A DNA stretch of 64,000 nt from an uncultured Bacteroidota bacterium. Lineage in GTDB: Bacteria; Bacteroidota; Ignavibacteria; Kryptoniales; JAKASW01. The notes beneath the pieces were generated by a model. The model saw only the letters and a program-made list of their open reading frames with translations. It was not told the DNA's origin and ran no database searches. Each line of letters starts with the position of its first letter. Position 1 is the first letter of the stretch. Of the stretch, positions 4,367 through 33,908 are shown one piece after another. The stretch spans positions 3,151,297 through 3,215,296 of the forward strand of contig OY969800.1 of NCBI GenBank assembly GCA_963703215.1. The letters run 5' to 3'. A program made the position numbers and the translations under genes.

Positions 4367-5416
4367 TTAGTTTGTCGGCTCCATAAGTTTGCTCACGGAC
4401 TCTCTGAGATCGTCCGGCTGCAAGTGCGAATATATCGCCGTTACGTTTACGCTCGAATGTCCGAGCAGCTTGGACACTTGGTAAATCGAAACGCCTCTTT
4501 GCACGAGCCATGATGCGAAGGTATGCCGTAAGCTGTGAAAACTCAGCTTCGGATTCAGCTTTGCCCTAACAACGTATCTCTTGAAAATCTTTGTGATCGA
4601 ATCCTGCGTTATCGGCTTGTGGTTCAACGTGAAAACAAACTCCGTCTCAGCGATCTCTTTCCTTCTCGTTAAAATTTCTTGTGCCTTTTTATTAAGTGGT
4701 ACAGTACGGACGCGCTTCGATTTCGTTAGGTGTACCCTGTTATCAAGGATCACAATTCCATCGGCAAGGTTGACTTGATTCCATTCGAGTGTCAAAAGTT
4801 CCATTTGCCTTAGTCCTGTGTTGCCTGCGAATTCTACCAAGTCCCGTATGTCTGCCTTGTCAATCGTTGTCAAAAGGACGTGGAACTCTTCAGGAGTGAG
4901 GAAAAGAGGGAGCTTTTCAGGTATTCTGATTTTGCCGATGCCATGACACGGATTTTCTTTTAGCTGTTTGTCTCTCACAGCTTTGTTGAACGCCGAAGAA
5001 AGGTTGATATAGTCCCTTCTTGCGGCATAAACTGAAGCCTCTTTGATTCGCTTGGTGAAGAACCGCTCAAGTTCCTGTGTGGTTATCTCCGTTATCCTCA
5101 CATTGCCGAAATGCCGTTCCAGCATTCCGAACGTTACCATGAAGGCTTTTCTGGTTTTGACCGTGTGAATGCCTTCGGAATATTTCAGGAATTGGTCGGT
5201 AAATTCTTTAAGCGAGATCGGAACTGTTTCTTGTTCCTGTCGCTGTCTCAGTTCATCGTTGAAGTTGCGAAGGAATGCTAAGGCTTCTTGTTTGAATTTC
5301 TTTCCGGTTGAGATGCGTTTTTCTTTGCCTCCGTCATCGTAAACGAGATAATAGATTCCGTTACTTCGCTTGAATAAGAACATGATGCCTCCGGTGGTTT
5401 GAGTTGAGGCATTCAT
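4367..5416 (-). CDS. tyrosine recombinase / phage-type integrase
   Basis: 349 aa. The C-terminal catalytic region reads ...GLRQMELLTLEWNQV...HSLRHTFASWLVQRGVSIYQVSKLLGHSSVNVTAIYSHL (R, H-x-x-R, H/Y motifs). It lies 122 nt from the 3' end of tRNA-Ser. Confidence 0.9.
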   Translation of the reverse strand: MNASTQTTGGIMFLFKRSNGIYYLVYDDGGKEKRISTGKKFKQEALAFLRNFNDELRQRQEQETVPISLKEFTDQFLKYSEGIHTVKTRKAFMVTFGMLERHFGNVRITEITTQELERFFTKRIKEASVYAARRDYINLSSAFNKAVRDKQLKENPCHGIGKIRIPEKLPLFLTPEEFHVLLTTIDKADIRDLVEFAGNTGLRQMELLTLEWNQVNLADGIVILDNRVHLTKSKRVRTVPLNKKAQEILTRRKEIAETEFVFTLNHKPITQDSITKIFKRYVVRAKLNPKLSFHSLRHTFASWLVQRGVSIYQVSKLLGHSSVNVTAIYSHLQPDDLRESVSKLMEPTN

Positions 5417-5538: not shown

Positions 5539-5628
5539 CGGAGAGGGAGGGATTCGAACCCTCGATACCCCTTTACAGAGTATGACGGTTTAGCAAACCG
5601 TTGCCTTCAACCACTCGGCCACCTCTCC
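5539..5628 (-). tRNA. tRNA-Ser (anticodon GCT)
   Basis: The reverse complement reads GGAGAGGTGGCCGAGTGGTTGAAGGCAACGGTTTGCTAAACCGTCATACTCTGTAAAGGGGTATCGAGGGTTCGAATCCCTCCCTCTCCG. It has a 7-bp acceptor stem, anticodon stem ACGGT/ACCGT, loop TTGCTAA, a long variable arm and T-loop GGTTCGAATCC. CCA is not encoded. Confidence 0.92.
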
Positions 5629-26661: not shown

Positions 26662-27945
26662 ATGAAATCGATCGATCCAATGGATTTCGGCAAGGTAATC
26701 AGGGAACAGCGTCAGGGTATTAGTTTATCCCTATCAGACTTGAGCTCAAAACTGAAGGTCACAAAGGGATATTTATCTCGCCTTGAATCAGGGAAAGCTG
26801 TGCCATCGATGGAGATGGTGAAGAAACTATCGAGATTTCTGAAGATAGATTCAACTCAACTTGGCTTTCTTGCCGGCTACCTTCCTTCAGACGTTGAAAA
26901 AATACTCTATACAAATCCAATCAAAGCCCCAGCAATTCTTAGAGAAACATTTGGACCCTCAATCAAGCCGGAGGAAATCGTTCCCTGTAACAGGGAACAA
27001 GAAAAGGCACATATAGTCAAGTCAAGGCCTTCCTATGAGTTATTGAACGTGGATTGTTTTCGATGGATGGAAGATCGCAAAAGCAACAGCATTCACGCGA
27101 TTGTAACGGATCCACCATACGGATTGAAAGAATATACCGCGACGGAAAAAGCTAAACTCCGAAACGGCAATGGAGGCGTTTGGCGTATTCCTCCTAAGCT
27201 TGATGGATATGAGCGTCATCCCCTGCCGAGGTTCACAGTGTTAGATCAAGAAGAAAAGAACGAACTAAGAAGATTCTTCTTTGAGTGGGCACAGAAAGCG
27301 TTAAAAATCCTTGTCCCAGGCGGACACATATTCATTGCAACAAATCCACTCCTCTCGCATTTGGTATATGAAGCTATCGAGAGAACAGGTTTCGAGAAGC
27401 GAGGTGAAATTATTCGCTTAGTACAAACACTTCGAGGTGGAGATAGACCTAAGAACGCGCATCATGAGTTCAGCAACGTGACCGTTATGCCACGGTCCTG
27501 CTGGGAACCTTGGGGCCTTTTTAGAAAACCTTGCGAGGGAAGGGTCCAAGACAATTTGCGTAAATGGAAAACCGGTGGTCTTCGTCGGATTTCCAAAGAA
27601 CAACCGTTCTGCGATGTGATAAAGAGTTCCCCTACGAGAGCCAGCGAAAGAGAAATCGCTCCGCACCCTTCCCTCAAACCACAGGCATTCATGCGACAAG
27701 TGGTTCGAGCGGCGTTGCCCCTTGAGGAAGGAATTATTCTTGACCCTTTCATGGGCGCTGGCTCAACGATAGCTGCTGCATGCTCATTAGGATATCGAAG
27801 CATAGGTATTGAGTCTGACACAGAATATTATCGCATTGCACTCGCGGCAATCCCGAAACTTACGGCACTACCATCAAATGGCCAGGGCAGCCTTACCAAT
27901 TATCCTGACAATGTGTCGCAGGAAGAACTATTTATGGTTGGCTAA
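26662..27945 (+). CDS. DNA methyltransferase (beta-class N6A/N4C, DPPY) fused to an N-terminal XRE-type HTH domain
   Basis: HTH: ISLSLSDLSSKLKVTKGYLSRLESGKAVPSMEMVKKL. Motif IV: IHAIVTDPPYG. Motif I near the C-terminus: ILDPFMGAGSTIAAA. The order IV-then-I indicates the beta class. Confidence 0.85.
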   Translation: MKSIDPMDFGKVIREQRQGISLSLSDLSSKLKVTKGYLSRLESGKAVPSMEMVKKLSRFLKIDSTQLGFLAGYLPSDVEKILYTNPIKAPAILRETFGPSIKPEEIVPCNREQEKAHIVKSRPSYELLNVDCFRWMEDRKSNSIHAIVTDPPYGLKEYTATEKAKLRNGNGGVWRIPPKLDGYERHPLPRFTVLDQEEKNELRRFFFEWAQKALKILVPGGHIFIATNPLLSHLVYEAIERTGFEKRGEIIRLVQTLRGGDRPKNAHHEFSNVTVMPRSCWEPWGLFRKPCEGRVQDNLRKWKTGGLRRISKEQPFCDVIKSSPTRASEREIAPHPSLKPQAFMRQVVRAALPLEEGIILDPFMGAGSTIAAACSLGYRSIGIESDTEYYRIALAAIPKLTALPSNGQGSLTNYPDNVSQEELFMVG

Positions 27946-28573
27946 GACGCCTCGATGTTTCCCTACGCCGACGCCCGGAAGCCTGTAAAGAAAATTCGCC
28001 CGCAGTTTTTCCACACCTGAAGTGGTGATTGAAGCGGTTGGAGTCCTCCTTGAAGCGCCTTTCCTTCCCGAGAAGGACCAATCTTTCTTTGTGAGCTTGG
28101 CACAGAGGATCTCCACAAATGTTAAAGGAACAACCTGCTTGTCGTCTTGCATTCCTACCATGTAGCGAAATATGAGGAGCCAGCTGTCTTCAGGGTTGTG
28201 TCCCTGCCATCCGCCCTTTTGAATTGAGGTCTTCACTTCAATTCCCTCGTCTCCTTTTAGAACTAAGTTGGAGCTATAGTGTCCTTTTGGAAGCAAATCT
28301 GGGTGTCCTCCTACTTTCAGGTTTGCAATTAGAGTGCTGGAAACTCGCGCGATATTCTTGACGAGCAACTCTGAAAGGATACCAGAGAAGGAATTGCCAA
28401 GCAGCAGACTCTTCCATTGGGCGAAACCCGTTGTTGACCAGAAAATCATTAATACCATTGAATAAACGGTGCGTTTCCATAACGGCATTTGATACTTCGT
28501 CGACAGTAAGATGATATGGTAGGGCGACATTGCGATTAACATACTTGTGATCAAGTTGTTTAAGACGTTCCAT
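27928..28573 (-). pseudogene. putative type II restriction endonuclease (PD-ExK), apparently frameshifted
   Basis: The C-terminal frame (27928..) contains GGHPDLLPKGHY...KGDEGIEVKTS, which is a PD...E-x-K motif. The protein-like N-terminus MERLKQLDHKYVNRNVALPYHLTVDEVSNAVMETHRLFNGINDFLVNNGF is in a different frame (28274..28573). The two frames can be joined by a 1-nt shift near 28420-28430. It is convergent with the methyltransferase and overlaps it by 18 nt. Confidence 0.5.
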
Positions 28574-28820
28574 GGTTTCCTTGTTAGGTTATTGGGGCCG
28601 GACTGAACAATAAAGGTTTTAAGGTACTGCAAAGAAGCAACGGCACCAAGCTGCGTTCCGCTATTTTCACATTACGTGCGCGGCACGAAGCGAGTCTCCA
28701 TGAAACACAATAATCGAGCGTTGTGATTCGCGTTGTTATACGCCGCCCAGCAATTCCTGTTCATTGACGGGCACGCGCGGGAGGCAATTAGGAGGACTGT
28801 ATTCGATTTCATTCTTGCTG

Positions 28821-29108
28821 TCATTTTGGTTTCTCTGTGGCTGACTCTTCCCCTTTCTTAACCATATCATTCGTGATTTGAACAGACAACCACAACACAA
28901 AGAGTATCATCGCGAAAAGCAGAAGCCACGACGGATAAATCCCAAAGAAGGTAAGCAAGGTTAGGATCACTGTCAGTAACCCTGTATTGATCAACTGTTG
29001 GATGAGAACATGCCTCCGCTTGTGATATCGCGGAATCAACCTTATCCAGGTCGCAAATAAAGAAACCAAGATCGAGACACCTATTACCTCTAGTACAAAA
29101 TAGAACAC
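28821..29108 (-). CDS. small membrane protein (cassette-like ORF)
   Basis: 95 aa with three hydrophobic helices and a charged C-terminus. Confidence 0.55.
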   Translation of the reverse strand: MFYFVLEVIGVSILVSLFATWIRLIPRYHKRRHVLIQQLINTGLLTVILTLLTFFGIYPSWLLLFAMILFVLWLSVQITNDMVKKGEESATEKPK

Positions 29109-29143
29109 TGGAATCTCCTGAAAGAAAAATATTTGATGATGCG

Positions 29144-29198
29144 TCGTAACAAGGGATTCGGCCGCATGTTCTTCAACAACCCGAATTCTGCCGTATTG
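29144..29198. repeat. short imperfect palindrome with an AAC core (attC-like candidate)
   Basis: gtcGTAAC-aagGGATTCGG-(19 nt)-CCGAATTCtgcc-gtattg. It lies 36 nt upstream of the ORF start at 29108 and directly abuts repeat copy R1. Confidence 0.3.
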
Positions 29199-29306
29199 TA
29201 TTTGCTTGCTTCTTTACTGCAAGAGTAAAATTATGATTAGCGAAGGAGAAATAAAAATTCATTTCCACGCACCGGAAGAAACTATGGGGGTGAGGTAGGG
29301 GCGGTA
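29192..29306. repeat. R-repeat copy 1 (about 115-nt intergenic repeat family)
   Basis: It shares ...cttctttactgcaa.ag...aaattatg...aggagaaataaaaattcattt...caccggaagaaactat.gggg tgag.gtagggg.ggta with copy 3, and the core with copies 2 and 4. It ends at the stop codon of 29307..29615. Confidence 0.75.
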
Positions 29307-29615
29307 TCATTGCTTCTTTCTGCTGACGATAATGCCTATGACAATTCCACCTATTGCCCCAAAGCCAAGGATCGGTCCGAATGAGCCGGTTATGATTGCA
29401 TCTGGTATACTCATTAACAAGCTAATGAGGAGGCCATTGACCCACCCTGGAAACGGAAGCGTCGTATTGGGAATTAGAAAACCTATTGCAAAGCGGCTCG
29501 TAAAAGCTCCAGCCATCGCGATATTTCGATTTGGTAAAGCCATGAACAGCATTGGGATGATATCAATAATTCCGAAAGCCAACCCTGCTATGAGACCAAC
29601 TCTTAGTCGTGACAT
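29307..29615 (-). CDS. small membrane protein (cassette-like ORF)
   Basis: 102 aa, Gly/Ile-rich, with 3-4 TM helices. Confidence 0.55.
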   Translation of the reverse strand: MSRLRVGLIAGLAFGIIDIIPMLFMALPNRNIAMAGAFTSRFAIGFLIPNTTLPFPGWVNGLLISLLMSIPDAIITGSFGPILGFGAIGGIVIGIIVSRKKQ

Positions 29616-29627
29616 TTTAACTCTCCT

Positions 29628-29945
29628 TTACTTTTTCGGTTGAGCCAGATCAAATGCCTCTTTTAACAATCGAGCGAATGATCTATTCAACTCCCGCTTG
29701 TCAGTGATTTTGTAGAAGTGATGGAATCTGTTCGCAGAGATTTGTTCGACCTTGCTTGCCGATGGAGCAGCTTTAGAGCGGTCGAGGACGACATTCACGC
29801 CTAGATAACTTTTCTTGGGATGGATAGCTATGAATGCCCGTTCTCGAACAATGTGAATGGATTCCTTTTTGGGTTCCACTTTATACGTTCCGATGGAGTC
29901 CAATAACTGCATCAGAGTCGTTTGTAAATCATCGACGGTATTCAT
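29628..29945 (-). CDS. DUF5655-like small protein
   Basis: 105 aa. The pattern ...ESIHIVRERAFIAIHPKKSYLGVNVVLDR....FHHFYKITDKRELNRSFARLLKEAF resembles the DUF5655 family, from memory only. Confidence 0.45.
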   Translation of the reverse strand: MNTVDDLQTTLMQLLDSIGTYKVEPKKESIHIVRERAFIAIHPKKSYLGVNVVLDRSKAAPSASKVEQISANRFHHFYKITDKRELNRSFARLLKEAFDLAQPKK

Positions 29946-30013
29946 GAGTTTCTGTTCCTTGAATGTGATTGAGTATGATAAATGCTAAACCGTTTTTCGC
30001 AGCCGCCATTTTC

Positions 30014-30098
30014 GCCTAGCGTGATACGGGAAGAAGTCGCGAGACGGGCGACCACCTTGCATATATAATCTGGAGCGTCTTTCTTCCGCATGTTAGCC
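30014..30098. repeat. attC-like imperfect palindrome A (85 bp)
   Basis: The left arm is GCCTAGC-gtgata-CGGGAAGAAGTCGC and the right arm is GCGTCTTTCTTCCG-cat-GTTAGCC. The TAA stop of the isochorismatase-family gene (30093-30095) lies inside the core GGCTAAC on the coding strand. Confidence 0.45.
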
Positions 30099-30650
30099 GC
30101 CGTTGCCCGAAAGGGCGTCAAAATCAATCTCACTTACTTCCTTCGTCTTAACAAACCATTCCGCCAGGACTTTATTGTGGTGCGCGATAATCTGCGATGC
30201 CGATAGAATGTCAGTGTCCCATGTGCTATGAGCGTCCTTTGCCAGAATCACTTGGTAACCCAAACTAAACGCGCGACGGCAAGTCGTGTCCACGCAAAAC
30301 TCAGTTTGCATGCCACATATGACAAGCGTCTTGATATTACGAGACTCCAACTGTTTCTGAAGCTCGGTGCCGTGGAACGAATCTGGCGTATCTTTCTCAA
30401 TGACAGCATCATTGCGCGATGGGGCGATGTCTGGGTGAATGTTCCATCCTGGAGTGCCGCGCTCTAACGGGTGTCCTCGCCCACCATTGTGTTGAACATA
30501 AATAATGGGGACAGAAGCAGCGCGCGCACCACTAATCAACCGCATCACTTGTGACAGTAAGTCCTTATCTCCCGCAATGGGCGGGATAATGGGACTCTTG
30601 AACACCCCGAGTTGCATATCAATCACAATCAATGCTATATCGCGTGGCAT
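30093..30650 (-). CDS. isochorismatase-family cysteine hydrolase
   Basis: ALIVIDMQLGVF contains the catalytic Asp region. TLVICGMQTEFCVDTTCRRA contains the catalytic Cys. 185 aa. Confidence 0.85.
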   Translation of the reverse strand: MPRDIALIVIDMQLGVFKSPIIPPIAGDKDLLSQVMRLISGARAASVPIIYVQHNGGRGHPLERGTPGWNIHPDIAPSRNDAVIEKDTPDSFHGTELQKQLESRNIKTLVICGMQTEFCVDTTCRRAFSLGYQVILAKDAHSTWDTDILSASQIIAHHNKVLAEWFVKTKEVSEIDFDALSGNGG

Positions 30651-30692
30651 ACGGAATAACTTCCTCTACTGATAGAAATCGCTCGGGCAATG

Positions 30693-30830
30693 GCGCCTAA
30701 CGTCCTGCCGGAAGAAGTCGTTGCTTTCGCTCGCTATAAATATTGCGCAACATCGAGTCATCGAGCAAAAGCAATGAAGCGAGAATGAAATGTAAAAATG
30801 ACGAGCGTCTTCTTCCGGCTTGTTATGCGC
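30693..30830. repeat. attC-like imperfect palindrome B (138 bp)
   Basis: gcGCCTAAC-gtcct-GCCGGAAGAAGTCG ... CGTCTTCTTCCGGC-tt-GTTATGCgc. The cores fit RYYYAAC / GTTRRRY: GCCTAAC on plus, GTTAGGC on minus. The arms are homologous to site A. The next ORF starts 45 nt beyond the core. Confidence 0.5.
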
Positions 30831-30865
30831 AGCGCCCAAATACGATTCAAAATCAGCAGCCACCT

Positions 30866-31312
30866 TCACTGAACTTTCACAACCTTAGTCAAGAGTTTGA
30901 ACGTGGAGTCTAGCGCCATTAGCTTAAATTCATACCGCCGTTCGGGATAAACAGTTACGAGTTCATATAACACATTCTCGAAAATACTGTCGGCCATTGG
31001 ATTAGAAATGGCTCTCGGTGAAACGAACAGGTCAACGGAATAAACATTTTGATTGGTAATGGCAAAGATTGCTCGGGCATTCTGCACTCGTGGAGACCAT
31101 ATTCCTTCCTTTTCGAGCAAGGCGACGATCACGAAAGCATCTGACTTAGACACCTCTGTCGAATCGTATAACATAGTGCATTGGGTATCCTTCGTGACTA
31201 TTTTAGCGTATCTCTCCTCGCTGTCACCCTTGGCTTGTTGCCTGTATTGCGCGAAGAGCAAGGTAGGGGCAAACAAAGCTAAGATGGTATACAGTAATCT
31301 TCTTGAAGTCAT
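30866..31312 (-). CDS. hypothetical secreted protein (cassette-like ORF)
   Basis: 148 aa with signal peptide MTSRRLLYTILALFAPTLLFAQ. No motif recognised. Confidence 0.6.
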   Translation of the reverse strand: MTSRRLLYTILALFAPTLLFAQYRQQAKGDSEERYAKIVTKDTQCTMLYDSTEVSKSDAFVIVALLEKEGIWSPRVQNARAIFAITNQNVYSVDLFVSPRAISNPMADSIFENVLYELVTVYPERRYEFKLMALDSTFKLLTKVVKVQ

Positions 31313-31331
31313 TTTATCAGACCTTTCTTAT

Positions 31332-31533
31332 TTCGGGCGTTGCGCATAACGTGCCGCGCGAAAAACGTCCGTGGCGAATTCGATTTTTTAATAAACATCA
31401 ACATAGAAAGGATATGCTATGATACGATCAATCACAAAGCTTTTTAACAAAATTCGCCATGGCGTTTTTTGCGGTGTTCCACGACGTTCGCGAAGCGATA
31501 CAAATAATGGAACAGCGCGAGATCGCGCGGCAC
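31332..31533. repeat. long nested inverted repeat C with GCATAAC / GTTCCAG cores
   Basis: aacgtgccgcgcg (31338-31350) is the perfect reverse complement of cgcgcggcacgtt (31514-31526). The inner arms aaaaacgtccgtggcgaatt (31351-31370) and aattcgccatggcgttttt (31441-31459) pair with one bulged base and one mismatch. Confidence 0.45.
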
Positions 31534-31731
31534 GTTCCAGCGGACAGCTCATGAGCGAAGCTCGCTCGATTGATGCCTTTCGCGTTGAGACAGGAAGTCG
31601 AAACGCGAACGATAAACCTGAAGATTCCATGTTAATTATGATAGTTGAGCATCCGGATGGAAGCGGTGAACTAAGAGGTGTAGAGGAAGACGATGGAGTC
31701 ATCAGCTTCACGCCTGAAAAATGGAAATACA

Positions 31732-32125: not shown

Positions 32126-32297
32126 CTGGAACTACCATAAAAACGAATTTCATTTTTCCGCCACCGGCAGCGTGTTATACGCGCCATCACGTTTATTTTC
32201 TTCATCTCTGCAAAGCTCAAATTATGATTGGTCGAGGAGAAATAAAAATTCATTTGCCCGACCTGGAACAAATCATGAAGGGGCGGTAGGGCGGCGC
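32126..32297. repeat. R-repeat copy 2 (extended form: short AAC...GTTATAC palindrome plus R core)
   Basis: ctGGAAC at 32126-32132, the aaaaacgaa/ttcattttt palindrome, GTTATAC at 32174-32180, then the R core (ctgcaaagctcaaattatgattggtcgaggagaaataaaaattcatttgcccg...ggggcggtagggcgg). The left part is homologous to copy 4. Confidence 0.7.
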
Positions 32298-32328: not shown

Positions 32329-32700
32329 TCATAAGGTTTTCCCGACCCATTGGCCGACCGTAATCCTGTGACCCTCAGGTGATGCTATTCCAAACTCACG
32401 CATTTCCCAAGGTTTGGTTTCGATCGGAAAGAGAATCTTGATTCCCTTCCGTTTCAGGTCTTCATAATAGCCGTCCGCATCGTCGACGACTAGATAGCCG
32501 AAGTATCTGTGATCACCGAGTTTGCCGGGAGATATTGCGTCCGGACATTCTCCCAGCATCACCATACAATTGTCTCTCTGAAGGAACTTCCAACCGCCTG
32601 GCTCTGACACGATCTTGAATCCCAGAACTTCAAAAAAACTCGATGAGGCTTGTAGATCGTGCACGGCCAACACATAGTGGTTCTGAAGAATCTTTGCCAT
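32329..32700 (-). CDS. VOC/glyoxalase-bleomycin-resistance family protein
   Basis: 123 aa. HYVLAVHDLQASSSFFEVLGFKIV...GYLVVDDADGYYEDLKRKGIKILFPIETKPWEMREFGIASPEGHRITVGQ is typical of VOC-fold proteins. Confidence 0.8.
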   Translation of the reverse strand: MAKILQNHYVLAVHDLQASSSFFEVLGFKIVSEPGGWKFLQRDNCMVMLGECPDAISPGKLGDHRYFGYLVVDDADGYYEDLKRKGIKILFPIETKPWEMREFGIASPEGHRITVGQWVGKTL

Positions 32701-32715
32701 TATTACTCTCCGTTC

Positions 32716-32874
32716 GGTGAACGATTAATGAATGTTAGTGTGCCACTATAGCGTAATGTTGTTTACTGCTTCTTTACTGCAAAGCTTAAATTATGTTTGG
32801 CGGAGGAGAAATAAAAATTCATTTGCCCGCACCGGAAGAAACTATAGGGGTGAGGGTAGGGGTGGTATGTTATG
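32716..32874. repeat. R-repeat copy 3 with flanking cores (GGTGAAC ... GTTATGC)
   Basis: The R core at 32751-32868 is nearly identical to copy 1. GTTATGC at 32868-32874 contains the TAA stop of the DUF4386 gene on the coding strand (GCATAAC). Confidence 0.7.
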
Positions 32875-33583
32875 CGTTGGTGCTACCGTCGTCACGAGGC
32901 CTCACACCAACGATAAGCAAGTACAGTACCATCGAGATTTCTGCGATTGCTGACGGAATGACGACGAAGGAGTGAATCTTTTGACCGAAGTGGGGGACAA
33001 TGAAAGCAGCGAGCACGTCAATGAGGTAGCAGATGCCACCCACGATAAGAATCTCGCCGAGCCACTTGGGAAACATCTCTGATTTGTAAGCGAGATACCC
33101 AAGCGGCACTAACCACAGGCCAAAGAATATCTGCGCAATGAGGATACCATAGTGCTGGGTCTCAAGCAGAAGATATATGAGAGCATGTGAACCCTCGATG
33201 CCAAAGGCGGCAGCATATCCACTGTTGGTTGCCACACGCAAGCCTTCAAACTCGAAGACCGCATTGAGGCATCCGATGCCGGCAGCGAGACAGACGAGGA
33301 TTAACATTACCCTCGCCATGTTCTTGTTCACATGCTTCAGCAGGATGTAAAGGGTCAGGGCCAGAAAGACAAAGAATGTCTGATCCAACAGATCAGCGAC
33401 GACGCCTATGCGAACAAGTAAAGGGTTCGCGATGACATTGGCAGCCGTGGCCGCCGCGTTGCCGACAACGTACATCTTGGGTTCAACAAATCCTTCCGCA
33501 AAGCCGCCGAAGATGCCGACGAGCAGGTAGAGGACGCCCGCGATTCTCGCCGTTTTTTTGTTCGAATTCATTTTGTCATCCAT
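32870..33583 (-). CDS. DUF4386-like membrane protein
   Basis: 237 aa. ARIAGVLYLLVGIFGGFAEGFV is followed by multiple TM helices, a pattern I recognise as the DUF4386 family. Confidence 0.65.
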   Translation of the reverse strand: MDDKMNSNKKTARIAGVLYLLVGIFGGFAEGFVEPKMYVVGNAAATAANVIANPLLVRIGVVADLLDQTFFVFLALTLYILLKHVNKNMARVMLILVCLAAGIGCLNAVFEFEGLRVATNSGYAAAFGIEGSHALIYLLLETQHYGILIAQIFFGLWLVPLGYLAYKSEMFPKWLGEILIVGGICYLIDVLAAFIVPHFGQKIHSFVVIPSAIAEISMVLYLLIVGVRPRDDGSTNA

Positions 33584-33658
33584 TTGATTTTCTATTTGCT
33601 ATACCTGCTTTATTCTGTTTGCTACCCCGTTAGTTATGCAATGTCGCCTAAGCATGAC

Positions 33659-33848
33659 GCATAACCACCATAAACACATGTTTCGTTTTTCCGCCATCGG
33701 CAGCGTCTTATGAGCCATAACTTGCGGCGCAGACGCACCATTATGTTTATCTGATTCTTTCCTGCAAAGCACGTTTAAAATTATGATTAGCGGAGGAGAA
33801 ATAAAAATTGTTTTGACGAGGCGAAACGAATTATGAAGCTGCGGTAAG
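33659..33848. repeat. R-repeat copy 4 (extended, most diverged)
   Basis: GCATAAC at 33659-33665, then ccaccataaacacatgtttcgtttttccgccatcggcagcgtcttatg (homologous to copy 2), then ...cctgcaaagc...aaattatgattagcggaggagaaataaaaattg.... Just upstream, GTTATGC (33633-33639) forms a perfect 7-bp inverted repeat with GCATAAC. Confidence 0.65.
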
Positions 33849-33908
33849 AGGATGTGACTGTATTCCTCTGCTTTGCTAAAAACTCGCCCACCGATTAACT
33901 TTATAATT

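Follow-up and report, generated by a model that had tools for sequence, protein, structure and literature searches.

Integrons are identified by two hallmarks, an integrase (IntI) that carries an IntI-specific domain and recombination sites, attC, with extrahelical bases that are read by this domain. The domain defines integron integrases and is reported to be necessary for activity (PMC4889954; PMC9668308, citing Messier & Roy 2001), and Smyshlyaev et al. describe the insertion as "not fully conserved" within their integron-like subgroup. Here, we discuss a 64,000-nucleotide stretch of DNA (hereafter the window) from an uncultured Bacteroidota bacterium (contig OY969800.1, assembly GCA_963703215.1), in which four palindromic sites, A to D, lie among the short genes of an accessory island. 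We assign a probability of roughly 0.85 to the reading in which sites A to D serve a chromosomal array of gene cassettes as attC-type recombination sites, and in which this array belongs to an integron-like system of Bacteroidota. The system is probably a new, non-canonical integron variant, and its site family is apparently undescribed and apparently common in Bacteroidota metagenomes.

The closest described sites are the attCs of sedentary chromosomal integrons and of clusters of attC sites lacking integrases (CALINs), as exemplified by the Vibrio cholerae repeat (VCR) type (PMC4889954). Like these, the sites discussed here are imperfect palindromes 3′ of promoter-less open reading frames (ORFs), with nnnTAAC/GTTAnnn cores, a crossover position at G|TT and a variable terminal structure. 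The arrays consist of co-oriented 0.5-1 kb cassettes with high site similarity within a lineage, as VCR-type arrays do, and the window holds a satellite cluster without a nearby integrase, as in the CALIN definition (PMC4889954). In contrast to attCs, however, the family to which the sites belong is devoid of extrahelical bases and instead conserves an A·A mismatch, which appears as T·T on the opposite strand. Its R box is 9 bp long, its spacer is 2/5 nt as compared with about 5/6 nt in validated attCs (5 versus 5-8 nt in a set of seven; PMC9668308 Data S9/S10), and it carries a highly conserved ~35-nt block on the 5′ side (AAGACGCTC...TCGCTTCAT). The recombinase that accompanies the family has its best sequence and fold match in IntI1 and VchIntIA (2a3v), combines PF13495 with PF00589 as they do, and adjoins an attI-like site and an array. 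Unlike these integrases, it is ~300 amino acids (aa) long and lacks the IntI-specific insertion, and its gene is co-oriented with the cassettes with attI downstream of the stop codon. The reverse-orientation integrons of Spirochaetota and the archaeal integrons also have an integrase gene co-oriented with the cassettes and attI immediately downstream, but they keep the IntI-specific domain and their attCs are recognised by IntegronFinder (PMC9668308).

The evidence comes in large part from related loci in public genomes and metagenomes (labelled by L-numbers; P0094 labels a recombinase protein). A DNA pattern derived from the 3′ arms matched three metagenome-assembled genomes (MAGs) labelled Bacteroidetes, each with a full homologous site and one (L007) with several. 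A second pattern matched 93 metagenome stretches and zero viral contigs. By a nucleotide hidden Markov model (HMM), the family amounts to 189 sites in 94 loci. Site orientation is uniform in 51 of the 52 loci that have two or more sites, the median R′-to-R′ distance is 841 nt (interquartile range 738-1139), and about half of the family sites are preceded by an ORF of 60 codons or more that ends on the same strand at most 90 nt upstream. A match in L005 (Binatia) was discarded as a chance match within GC-rich sequence with no partner arm.

The structure statistics are based on an alignment (A4) of 99 distinct family sites. RNAalifold identifies two stems in A4, with compensatory changes in 16 of 21 pairs. 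In the structure formed by the R, L and inner stems, 89.8% of the cells are paired, compared with 38-44% when the 3′ partners are slid, and 439 cells are changed on both sides, compared with 53-110 for slid partners; in 500 shuffles, these values were never attained. Pairing in the 11-bp L stem amounts to 92.4%, with changes on both sides in eight of its 11 pairs, and the terminal part (32-143 nt between anchors) contains a second covarying stem in which 8/8 pairs show double changes. The coding-strand consensus reads nCRnn-TAAC-A-N-(11-bp covarying stem)-A-CG-CTC...TCGCTTCAT...(second stem)...CG-A-(stem)-NRRAC-GTTA-KNY-G. The R box comprises nnnnnTAAC and GTTAnnnnn (R″ and R′, respectively), whose TAAC and GTTA show a conservation of 97% or more across the family. 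Each L arm is 11 nt long and a bulge is absent in all 99 sites, while the A·A mismatch is present in 94 and its CG/CG flanks in 88 of them. The original prediction had noted spacers of unequal length (5-6 versus 2-3 nt) in sites A and B. This asymmetry is a conserved trait of the family, with 2 unpaired nt (A + N) on the 5′ side and 5 (NRRAC) on the 3′ side. Predicted folding is more stable for the bottom strand in 75 of the 99 sites, a weak hint that this may be the reactive strand. The best-conserved stretch of the alignment is the ~35-nt block, which is present on the 5′ side only (A4 columns 29-70: AAGACGCTC-N-CATTTGTATAT-N-TCG-NN-CTCGCTTCAT). It is conserved beyond the needs of stem pairing and may be a binding site for an accessory protein or an outward promoter.

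The cassette boundaries are at G|TTA. Two loci, L014 and L086, have one 1167-nt cassette in common (96% identity) between different neighbours, and their homology opens at the GTTA of the upstream R′ and closes at the GTTA of the unit's own R′. In L086 this unit is the first cassette past the integrase gene, and non-attC sequence precedes it. Moreover, in 25 of 77 cases the variable part of R″ (five bases) matches, in reverse complement and without mismatch, that of the R′ of the previous site, i.e., the start of the site's own cassette. A site's own R′ gives 6/148 and random pairing gives 5/177. Such complementarity between R″ and cassette start is expected if crossover at G|TTA excises cassettes as circles.

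By tblastn with a query 100% identical to annotated IntI1, 15 loci have a tyrosine recombinase gene at the array end. This gene invariably precedes the sites, shares their strand and lies at a distance of 646-1472 nt from the first of them; L105 and L107 are arranged likewise. A conserved junction, ...AAACG-short hairpin-...TA|GTTA, follows 60-90 nt past the recombinase stop codon and leads into the co-oriented cassettes (seen in L081, L086, L018, L104, L006, L026, L102 and L107). This junction is the apparent attI. Among NCBIfam models, TIGR02249 (integron integrase) is the best or second-best match of the recombinases with 211-247 bits, matched in two pieces, and some of them pass NF040815, "tyrosine recombinase/integron integrase". 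In the PDB, VchIntIA is the best sequence match with 172 bits, likewise split into two pieces; the alignment to XerA (4a8e) is in a single piece.

The 3.6-Mb contig of the window appears to encode, at another location, one member of this recombinase group, P0094 (300 aa; 58% identity to the L081 enzyme). The longest contigs recorded for P0094 and for the isochorismatase and PdxA proteins of the window have an identical length, 3,603,319 nt, and P0094 co-occurs with window-identical contigs in GCA_052915765.1 and ERR11594402. In its AlphaFold model (mean pLDDT 80), no helix is predicted between H184-197 and H215-228, and the best Foldseek match of the model is 2a3v (E=4e-18), ahead of XerA. A recombinase at least 90% identical to P0094 is encoded in L107, where the order is integrase, attI, cassette and family attC (80 bits), and the cassette start is matched in reverse complement by the R″ of this attC, GCGCTTAAC. 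The P0094 gene is itself preceded, at ~180 nt and in the same orientation, by a single family site scoring 29 bits (L102:3874-3971 and L103:295-392), on the side opposite to attI and array. In L105 (10952-17560), three IS110-family (DEDD_Tnp_IS110) transposase genes lie within the cassette array just past the integrase. These insertions recall the IS1111-attC elements, which target attC sites in classical integrons.

Within the window, the strings that had been quoted for two palindromes are present in the sequence. On the plus strand, site A reads GCCTAGC(30014-30020)-gtgata-CGGGAAGAAGTCGC ... GCGTCTTTCTTCCG-cat-GTTAGCC(30092-30098) and site B reads GCCTAAC(30695-30701)-gtcct-GCCGGAAGAAGTCG(30707-30720) ... 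CGTCTTCTTCCGGC(30806-30819)-tt-GTTATGC(30822-30828). The proposal that A and B are homologous attC-type sites that bound an isochorismatase-family gene as a cassette is borne out by the homologous arrays, the covariation, the G|TTA boundaries, the end complementarity and the IntI-like neighbours. The lengths of 85 and 138 bp given for their central regions, on the other hand, correspond roughly to those of the whole sites (85 and 134 nt); the arms are 34 nt (A) and 85 nt (B) apart. The arm 12-mer CGGAAGAAGTCG, allowing at most one mismatch, occurs across the 64 kb only at the three arm positions 30028, 30709 and 30806. The two sites are two of four. A covariance model built on the site family (R1), run unfiltered over the window, reports four sites and no more, each of them within the array on the minus strand, and thus adds C and D. 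A generic R/L-box script that was also tried returned just site B and one chance-level pair, no better than shuffles.

Site B is intact. Its minus strand reads GCGCATAAC-AA-GCCGGAAGAAG-A-CG ... CG-A-CTTCTTCCGGC-AGGAC-GTTAGGCGC, R1 assigns 140.5 bits (E=9e-33) to this strand as compared with 16.8 bits to the plus strand, and a site in a Bacteroidetes MAG (L008) is 85% identical. Site A looks partly decayed. On the coding strand its R″ is GCGGCTAAC and its R′ is GCTAGGC (GTT changed to GCT), its L stem has two defects and its terminal region is short. Nevertheless, it is matched across the full family model by nhmmer (E=1e-5) and scores 58.7 bits with R1 (E=2e-12), with non-standard pairs flagged in the R and L helices. 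Site C contains a perfect 14-nt inverted repeat (31348-31361/31523-31536) and folds strongly, with predicted energies of -48 to -54 kcal/mol; its 3′ half matches the family HMM (E=8e-4), and R1 gives 25.0 bits (E=4e-4) over 31338-31487. Site D is decayed. Its 5′ half is intact (GCGTATAAC-AA-CGCG...AACGCTCGATTATTGTG...CTCGCTT) and matches model positions 2-73 (nhmmer, E=0.002), most of its 3′ half is lost, and its R′ is GTAATGT. The core pattern RYYYAAC/GTTRRRY is thus present in B (GCATAAC/GTTAGGC) and in the R′ of C (GTTATGC), the exceptions being the R′ of A and of D; hence, the GTTRRRY end claimed for the coding strand holds for B but not for A. Given the GCT triplet and the L-stem defects of A together with the decay of D, the isochorismatase cassette is probably poorly mobile or fixed by now, judging from sequence.

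The ~5-kb island with the DUF4386, glyoxalase-family, isochorismatase-family and DUF5655 genes is explained as a satellite cassette array (Table 1). Every plausible gene from 33.6 kb down to 27.9 kb is on the minus strand, and the genes are short with unrelated functions. Their order is DUF4386; glyoxalase-family; 148-aa unknown; isochorismatase-family; DUF5655 with the 102-aa membrane-like ORF; 95-aa ORF; and 234-aa ORF. The TAA stop codon of the isochorismatase ORF is part of the site A core GGCTAAC. The limits of the isochorismatase cassette follow the boundary rule derived from L014 and L086. In the window, too, the starts of cassettes are complementary to R″ elements over eight or nine of nine positions (Table 1). 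The four family sites fall within 2.9 kb, and a CALIN is recognised by at least two attC sites within 4 kb and no nearby integrase.

Table 1. The cassette array in the window: sites, cassettes, ORFs and repeated elements, with positions counted from the first letter of the stretch (arrows give the reading direction on the minus strand).
Feature	Position	Strand	Description
Site A	30014-30098 (part 30008-30103)	minus	short, partly degenerate in appearance; 85 nt
Site B	30695-30828 (part 30689-30833)	minus	intact; 134 nt
Site C	31342-31542	minus	divergent palindrome; no unpaired spacer; R″ CGCTGGAAC (31542→31534), L″ GTGCCGCGCGA, L′ TCGCGCGGCAC, R′ GTTATGCGC (31350→31342)
Site D	28663-28746	minus	decayed; R1 21.8 bits, E=0.0025
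Isochorismatase cassette, 681 nt	30020-30700	minus	from TTAGGCGC... after G of site B R′ to G of site A R′; start GTTAGGCGC versus site A R″ GCGGCTAAC, reverse complement 8/9
148-aa-ORF cassette, 649 nt	30701-31349	minus	bounded by R′ of sites C and B; start GTTATGCGC (31350→31342) versus site B R″ GCGCATAAC, reverse complement 9/9
Upstream cassette (putative start)	32132→32124	minus	GTTCCAGCG versus site C R″ CGCTGGAAC (31542→31534), 9/9
DUF4386 cassette	33665→33657 (start)	minus	GTTATGCGT versus ACGCATAAC (32877→32869), overlapping DUF4386 stop; 9/9
Upstream cassettes (DUF4386 + glyoxalase-family)	32329-33665	minus	Pfam matches and end comparison
DUF4386 ORF	32870-33583	minus	Pfam PF14329, E=6e-50
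Glyoxalase-family ORF	32329-32700	minus	Pfam PF00903, E=7e-15
148-aa ORF	30866-31312	minus	function unknown; no match in Pfam or NCBIfam
Isochorismatase-family ORF	30093-30650	minus	between sites A and B; Pfam PF00857, E=1e-39
DUF5655 ORF	29628-29945	minus	downstream of site A; Pfam PF18899, E=9e-12
102-aa membrane-like ORF	29307-29615	minus	downstream of site A; ORF list
95-aa ORF	28821-29108	minus	downstream of site A; ORF list
attI-like motif GGCGGAAAAACGAAACATGTGTTTATGGTG	33666-33695	minus	directly 5′ of cassette start GTTATGCGTCATG
attI-like motif, second copy	32133-32162	minus	before GTTCCAGCG
~100-nt repeat	29195-29303; 32186-32294; 32756-32864; 33739-33850	minus	four copies by alignment

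Two motifs in the array resemble the junction downstream of the family integrases. Both copies show the pattern GGCGGAAAAAYGAAA...TTTATGGTR, the window motif matches the tail of L102 by blastn (76% over 38 nt), and the cassette start GTTATGCGTCATG has 13 nt in common with the start of the first cassette beside the integrase in L102. This similarity suggests that attI-type junctions are present inside an integrase-less array.

Downstream of ACGCATAAC, a ~100-nt repeat takes the place of an L box. Its copies occupy inter-cassette positions where attC sites are expected, as between the 102-aa and 95-aa ORFs. The repeat is non-palindromic and has the core AATTTTTATTTCTCCT...CATAATTT...TTGCAG, preceded by a C-rich tract. 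It has no further copy in the window, none in the related loci (nhmmer returns only the array and identical contigs) and no match in Rfam, is not matched by R1 and folds weakly. A second attC type, a small ORF and an integrase remnant were considered as its identity and rejected, as there is no palindrome, the folds are weak, protein similarity is absent and the reading frames differ from copy to copy. With Rfam at gathering thresholds, a tRNA is the sole match in the window, and at E<=1 nothing is matched within 28.4-34.0 kb.

The right flank of the island consists of housekeeping genes (GWxTD, PdxA), and the left flank of a helix-turn-helix (HTH)-DNA methylase gene and an IS1595 transposase gene. 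The HTH-fused N6/N4 DNA methylase gene, on the plus strand, converges on the domain-less 234-aa ORF at the distal end of the array (26662-28632), and the pair may be a restriction-modification system. In L007 (1735-3730), a methylase gene with a 229-aa ORF lies between two attC sites and is apparently a cassette. The sole tyrosine recombinase gene of the window (4367-5416) was considered as the integrase of the array and rejected: it shows 31% identity over the catalytic domain only and 75 bits against the integron-integrase cut-off of 265. The encoded protein is phage/Xer-like (349 aa) and its gene adjoins a tRNA gene (5539-5628); together they may mark the border of an integrated element that has no relation to the cassette array.

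The reaction that we infer from these comparisons can be outlined as follows. One strand, perhaps the bottom strand, would fold in vivo into a 9-bp R box, the asymmetric 2/5-nt spacer and an 11-bp L stem, which would be closed by the A·A mismatch followed by CG/CG and capped by a variable terminal part with a second stem. The sites themselves are imperfect palindromes of 85-200 nt just after promoter-less ORFs. A tyrosine recombinase of the IntI/Xer lineage would cut R′, with G|TTA as the putative cleavage bond, so that units of the form TTA...ORF...site...G would be excised as circles, and these would be inserted at the attI-like site ~60-90 nt downstream of the integrase gene. An enzyme of this kind may still be active on such sites today, and P0094, apparently encoded elsewhere on the contig, could act in trans on the array.

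Several observations weigh against sites A to D being attC-type sites of an integron-like system. The first group concerns the array itself. Searches of the 64-kb window with IntI1 and five family integrases (tblastn) found no integron integrase, and we therefore regard the array as a CALIN-type satellite. Contigs from three other samples (L002-L004) carry the array at 100% identity in unchanged order, and hence the locus gives no direct indication that cassettes have moved recently. A 2-kb contig (L001, from GCA_052915765.1) is 100% identical to window 28919-30885 and continues upstream with 90 unrelated bases (L001:1-90), such that the divergence begins at 30886, 57 nt before the R″ of site B and off any cassette boundary. 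These 90 nt have no match among the other sequences compared, and the contig may be chimeric or may hold a variant cassette. Position 30801, within site B, is where two Logan contigs end. As to folding, prediction of the single-strand structure had been proposed as a check for both sites on both strands. Site B does fold far better than its shuffles on each strand (z=-3.1 and -3.2), whereas site A is no more stable than its shuffles (z=+0.9 and +1.4 for the two strands); the significance of A thus derives from its homology to the family, as given by the R1 score, and not from its own folding.

The second group concerns the canonical features of integrons. A surrogate canonical model (R2), built on the seven attCs that were experimentally recombined by IntI1 (PMC9668308 Data S9/S10), detected the catB3 and aadA5 attCs of a class 1 integron (L106) with 56.8 and 21 bits, respectively, and missed the dfrA1 attC. 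It matched 0/17 family sites in L086, L007 and L006 and nothing at sites A to D, although it is a small surrogate distinct from the model of IntegronFinder. Hence, the family sites are attC-like in logic but not in canonical geometry, and R2 gave neither A nor B the attC covariance score that had been sought. Since R2 is small, it does not settle what IntegronFinder would report. The description as "canonical" is overstated, given the absence of bulges, the GCT of A, the failure of the surrogate and an integrase without the IntI-specific domain. The family recombinases also score below the TIGR02249 cut-off (247 versus 265 bits). Residues 186-243 of VchIntIA are replaced by 16 residues in the L081 integrase, and relative to IntI1, 31 + 9 residues are missing in five independent sequences (L081, L086, L018, L026 and L080). 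The structure paper on 2a3v reportedly places the I2 helix and residues that contact the extrahelical bases in the missing region. Cassette arrays served by I2-less enzymes are not described in the results of our literature search.

These differences bear directly on the alternative that the array is a classical integron remnant, with canonical attCs and a classical I2-bearing IntI elsewhere, the I2-less neighbours being coincidental Xer-like housekeeping genes. The TAAC/GTTA cores, the cassette organisation and the crossover position are all classical, more than 7400 homologues of the recombinase exist and the Joint Genome Institute (JGI) labels them XerD, and classical IntI is known from integrons of Chlorobi, Ignavibacteriae and Salinibacter. 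We nevertheless consider this alternative unlikely. The I2-less gene has a fixed position and orientation and is followed by the conserved ...TA|GTTA junction in at least 15 independent loci, and ~425 kb of family loci contain no recombinase that covers IntI1 residues ~188-227 (tblastn with IntI1). Furthermore, the sites offer an I2 helix no bulged bases to recognise, and the surrogate canonical model misses them.

Alternatively, the R boxes could be recombined as duplexes, in the manner of double-strand Xer/dif-like modules, and the long palindromes would then be incidental or terminators. The Xer architecture of the recombinase is in keeping with this idea (one-piece match to XerA, no insertion), and the commonest R″, GCGCATAAC, seems to resemble the XerC arm of E. 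coli dif. However, strong covariation is seen in the two stems over distances of up to ~120 nt, and duplex recombination needs no such pairing. The complementarity of R″ to the start of its own cassette is likewise what is expected if the ends pair in an excised single strand, and pdif modules are 28-bp sites without long palindromes. We therefore judge duplex recombination to be less likely still. That an Xer-type enzyme without an I2 domain can recombine a folded single strand is exemplified by CTX-phi attP(+), the substrate of XerCD, which shows that such a reaction is possible; attP(+) differs, however, in being a single dif-mimicking phage attachment site rather than part of gene-cassette arrays. 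Finally, generic intergenic palindromes (repetitive extragenic palindrome (REP)- or miniature inverted-repeat transposable element (MITE)-like, or rho-independent terminators) that take no part in site-specific recombination would account for the location of the sites just 3′ of ORFs and for the stability of hairpin B on both strands, but they can practically be set aside in view of four copies confined to one array in 64 kb with none dispersed outside, hairpins not followed by a T-run, cassette-precise homology breaks, the end-complementarity rule and the linkage to an integrase.

The attC-type reading of sites A to D can be extended to the family as a whole. The balance tips slightly towards an unrecognised, widespread Bacteroidota integron lineage in which an I2-less, IntI-related recombinase handles bulge-free hairpin cassettes. 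Such a lineage may be an intermediate between Xer/dif and integrons, or the result of secondary loss of the domain.

Collectively, all population-genetic signatures of cassette mobility, but neither of the hallmarks by which integrons are identified, are present in this large environmental family. If the lineage is real, capture of cassettes as folded DNA does not need the feature held to define integron integrases. The diversity of integrons in Bacteroidota would then be underestimated, many "XerD" and "tyrosine recombinase/integron integrase" annotations would conceal integron platforms, and current tools would call such arrays CALINs or miss them. A natural intermediate of this kind would also make the evolution of hairpin recognition from Xer-type recombination testable.

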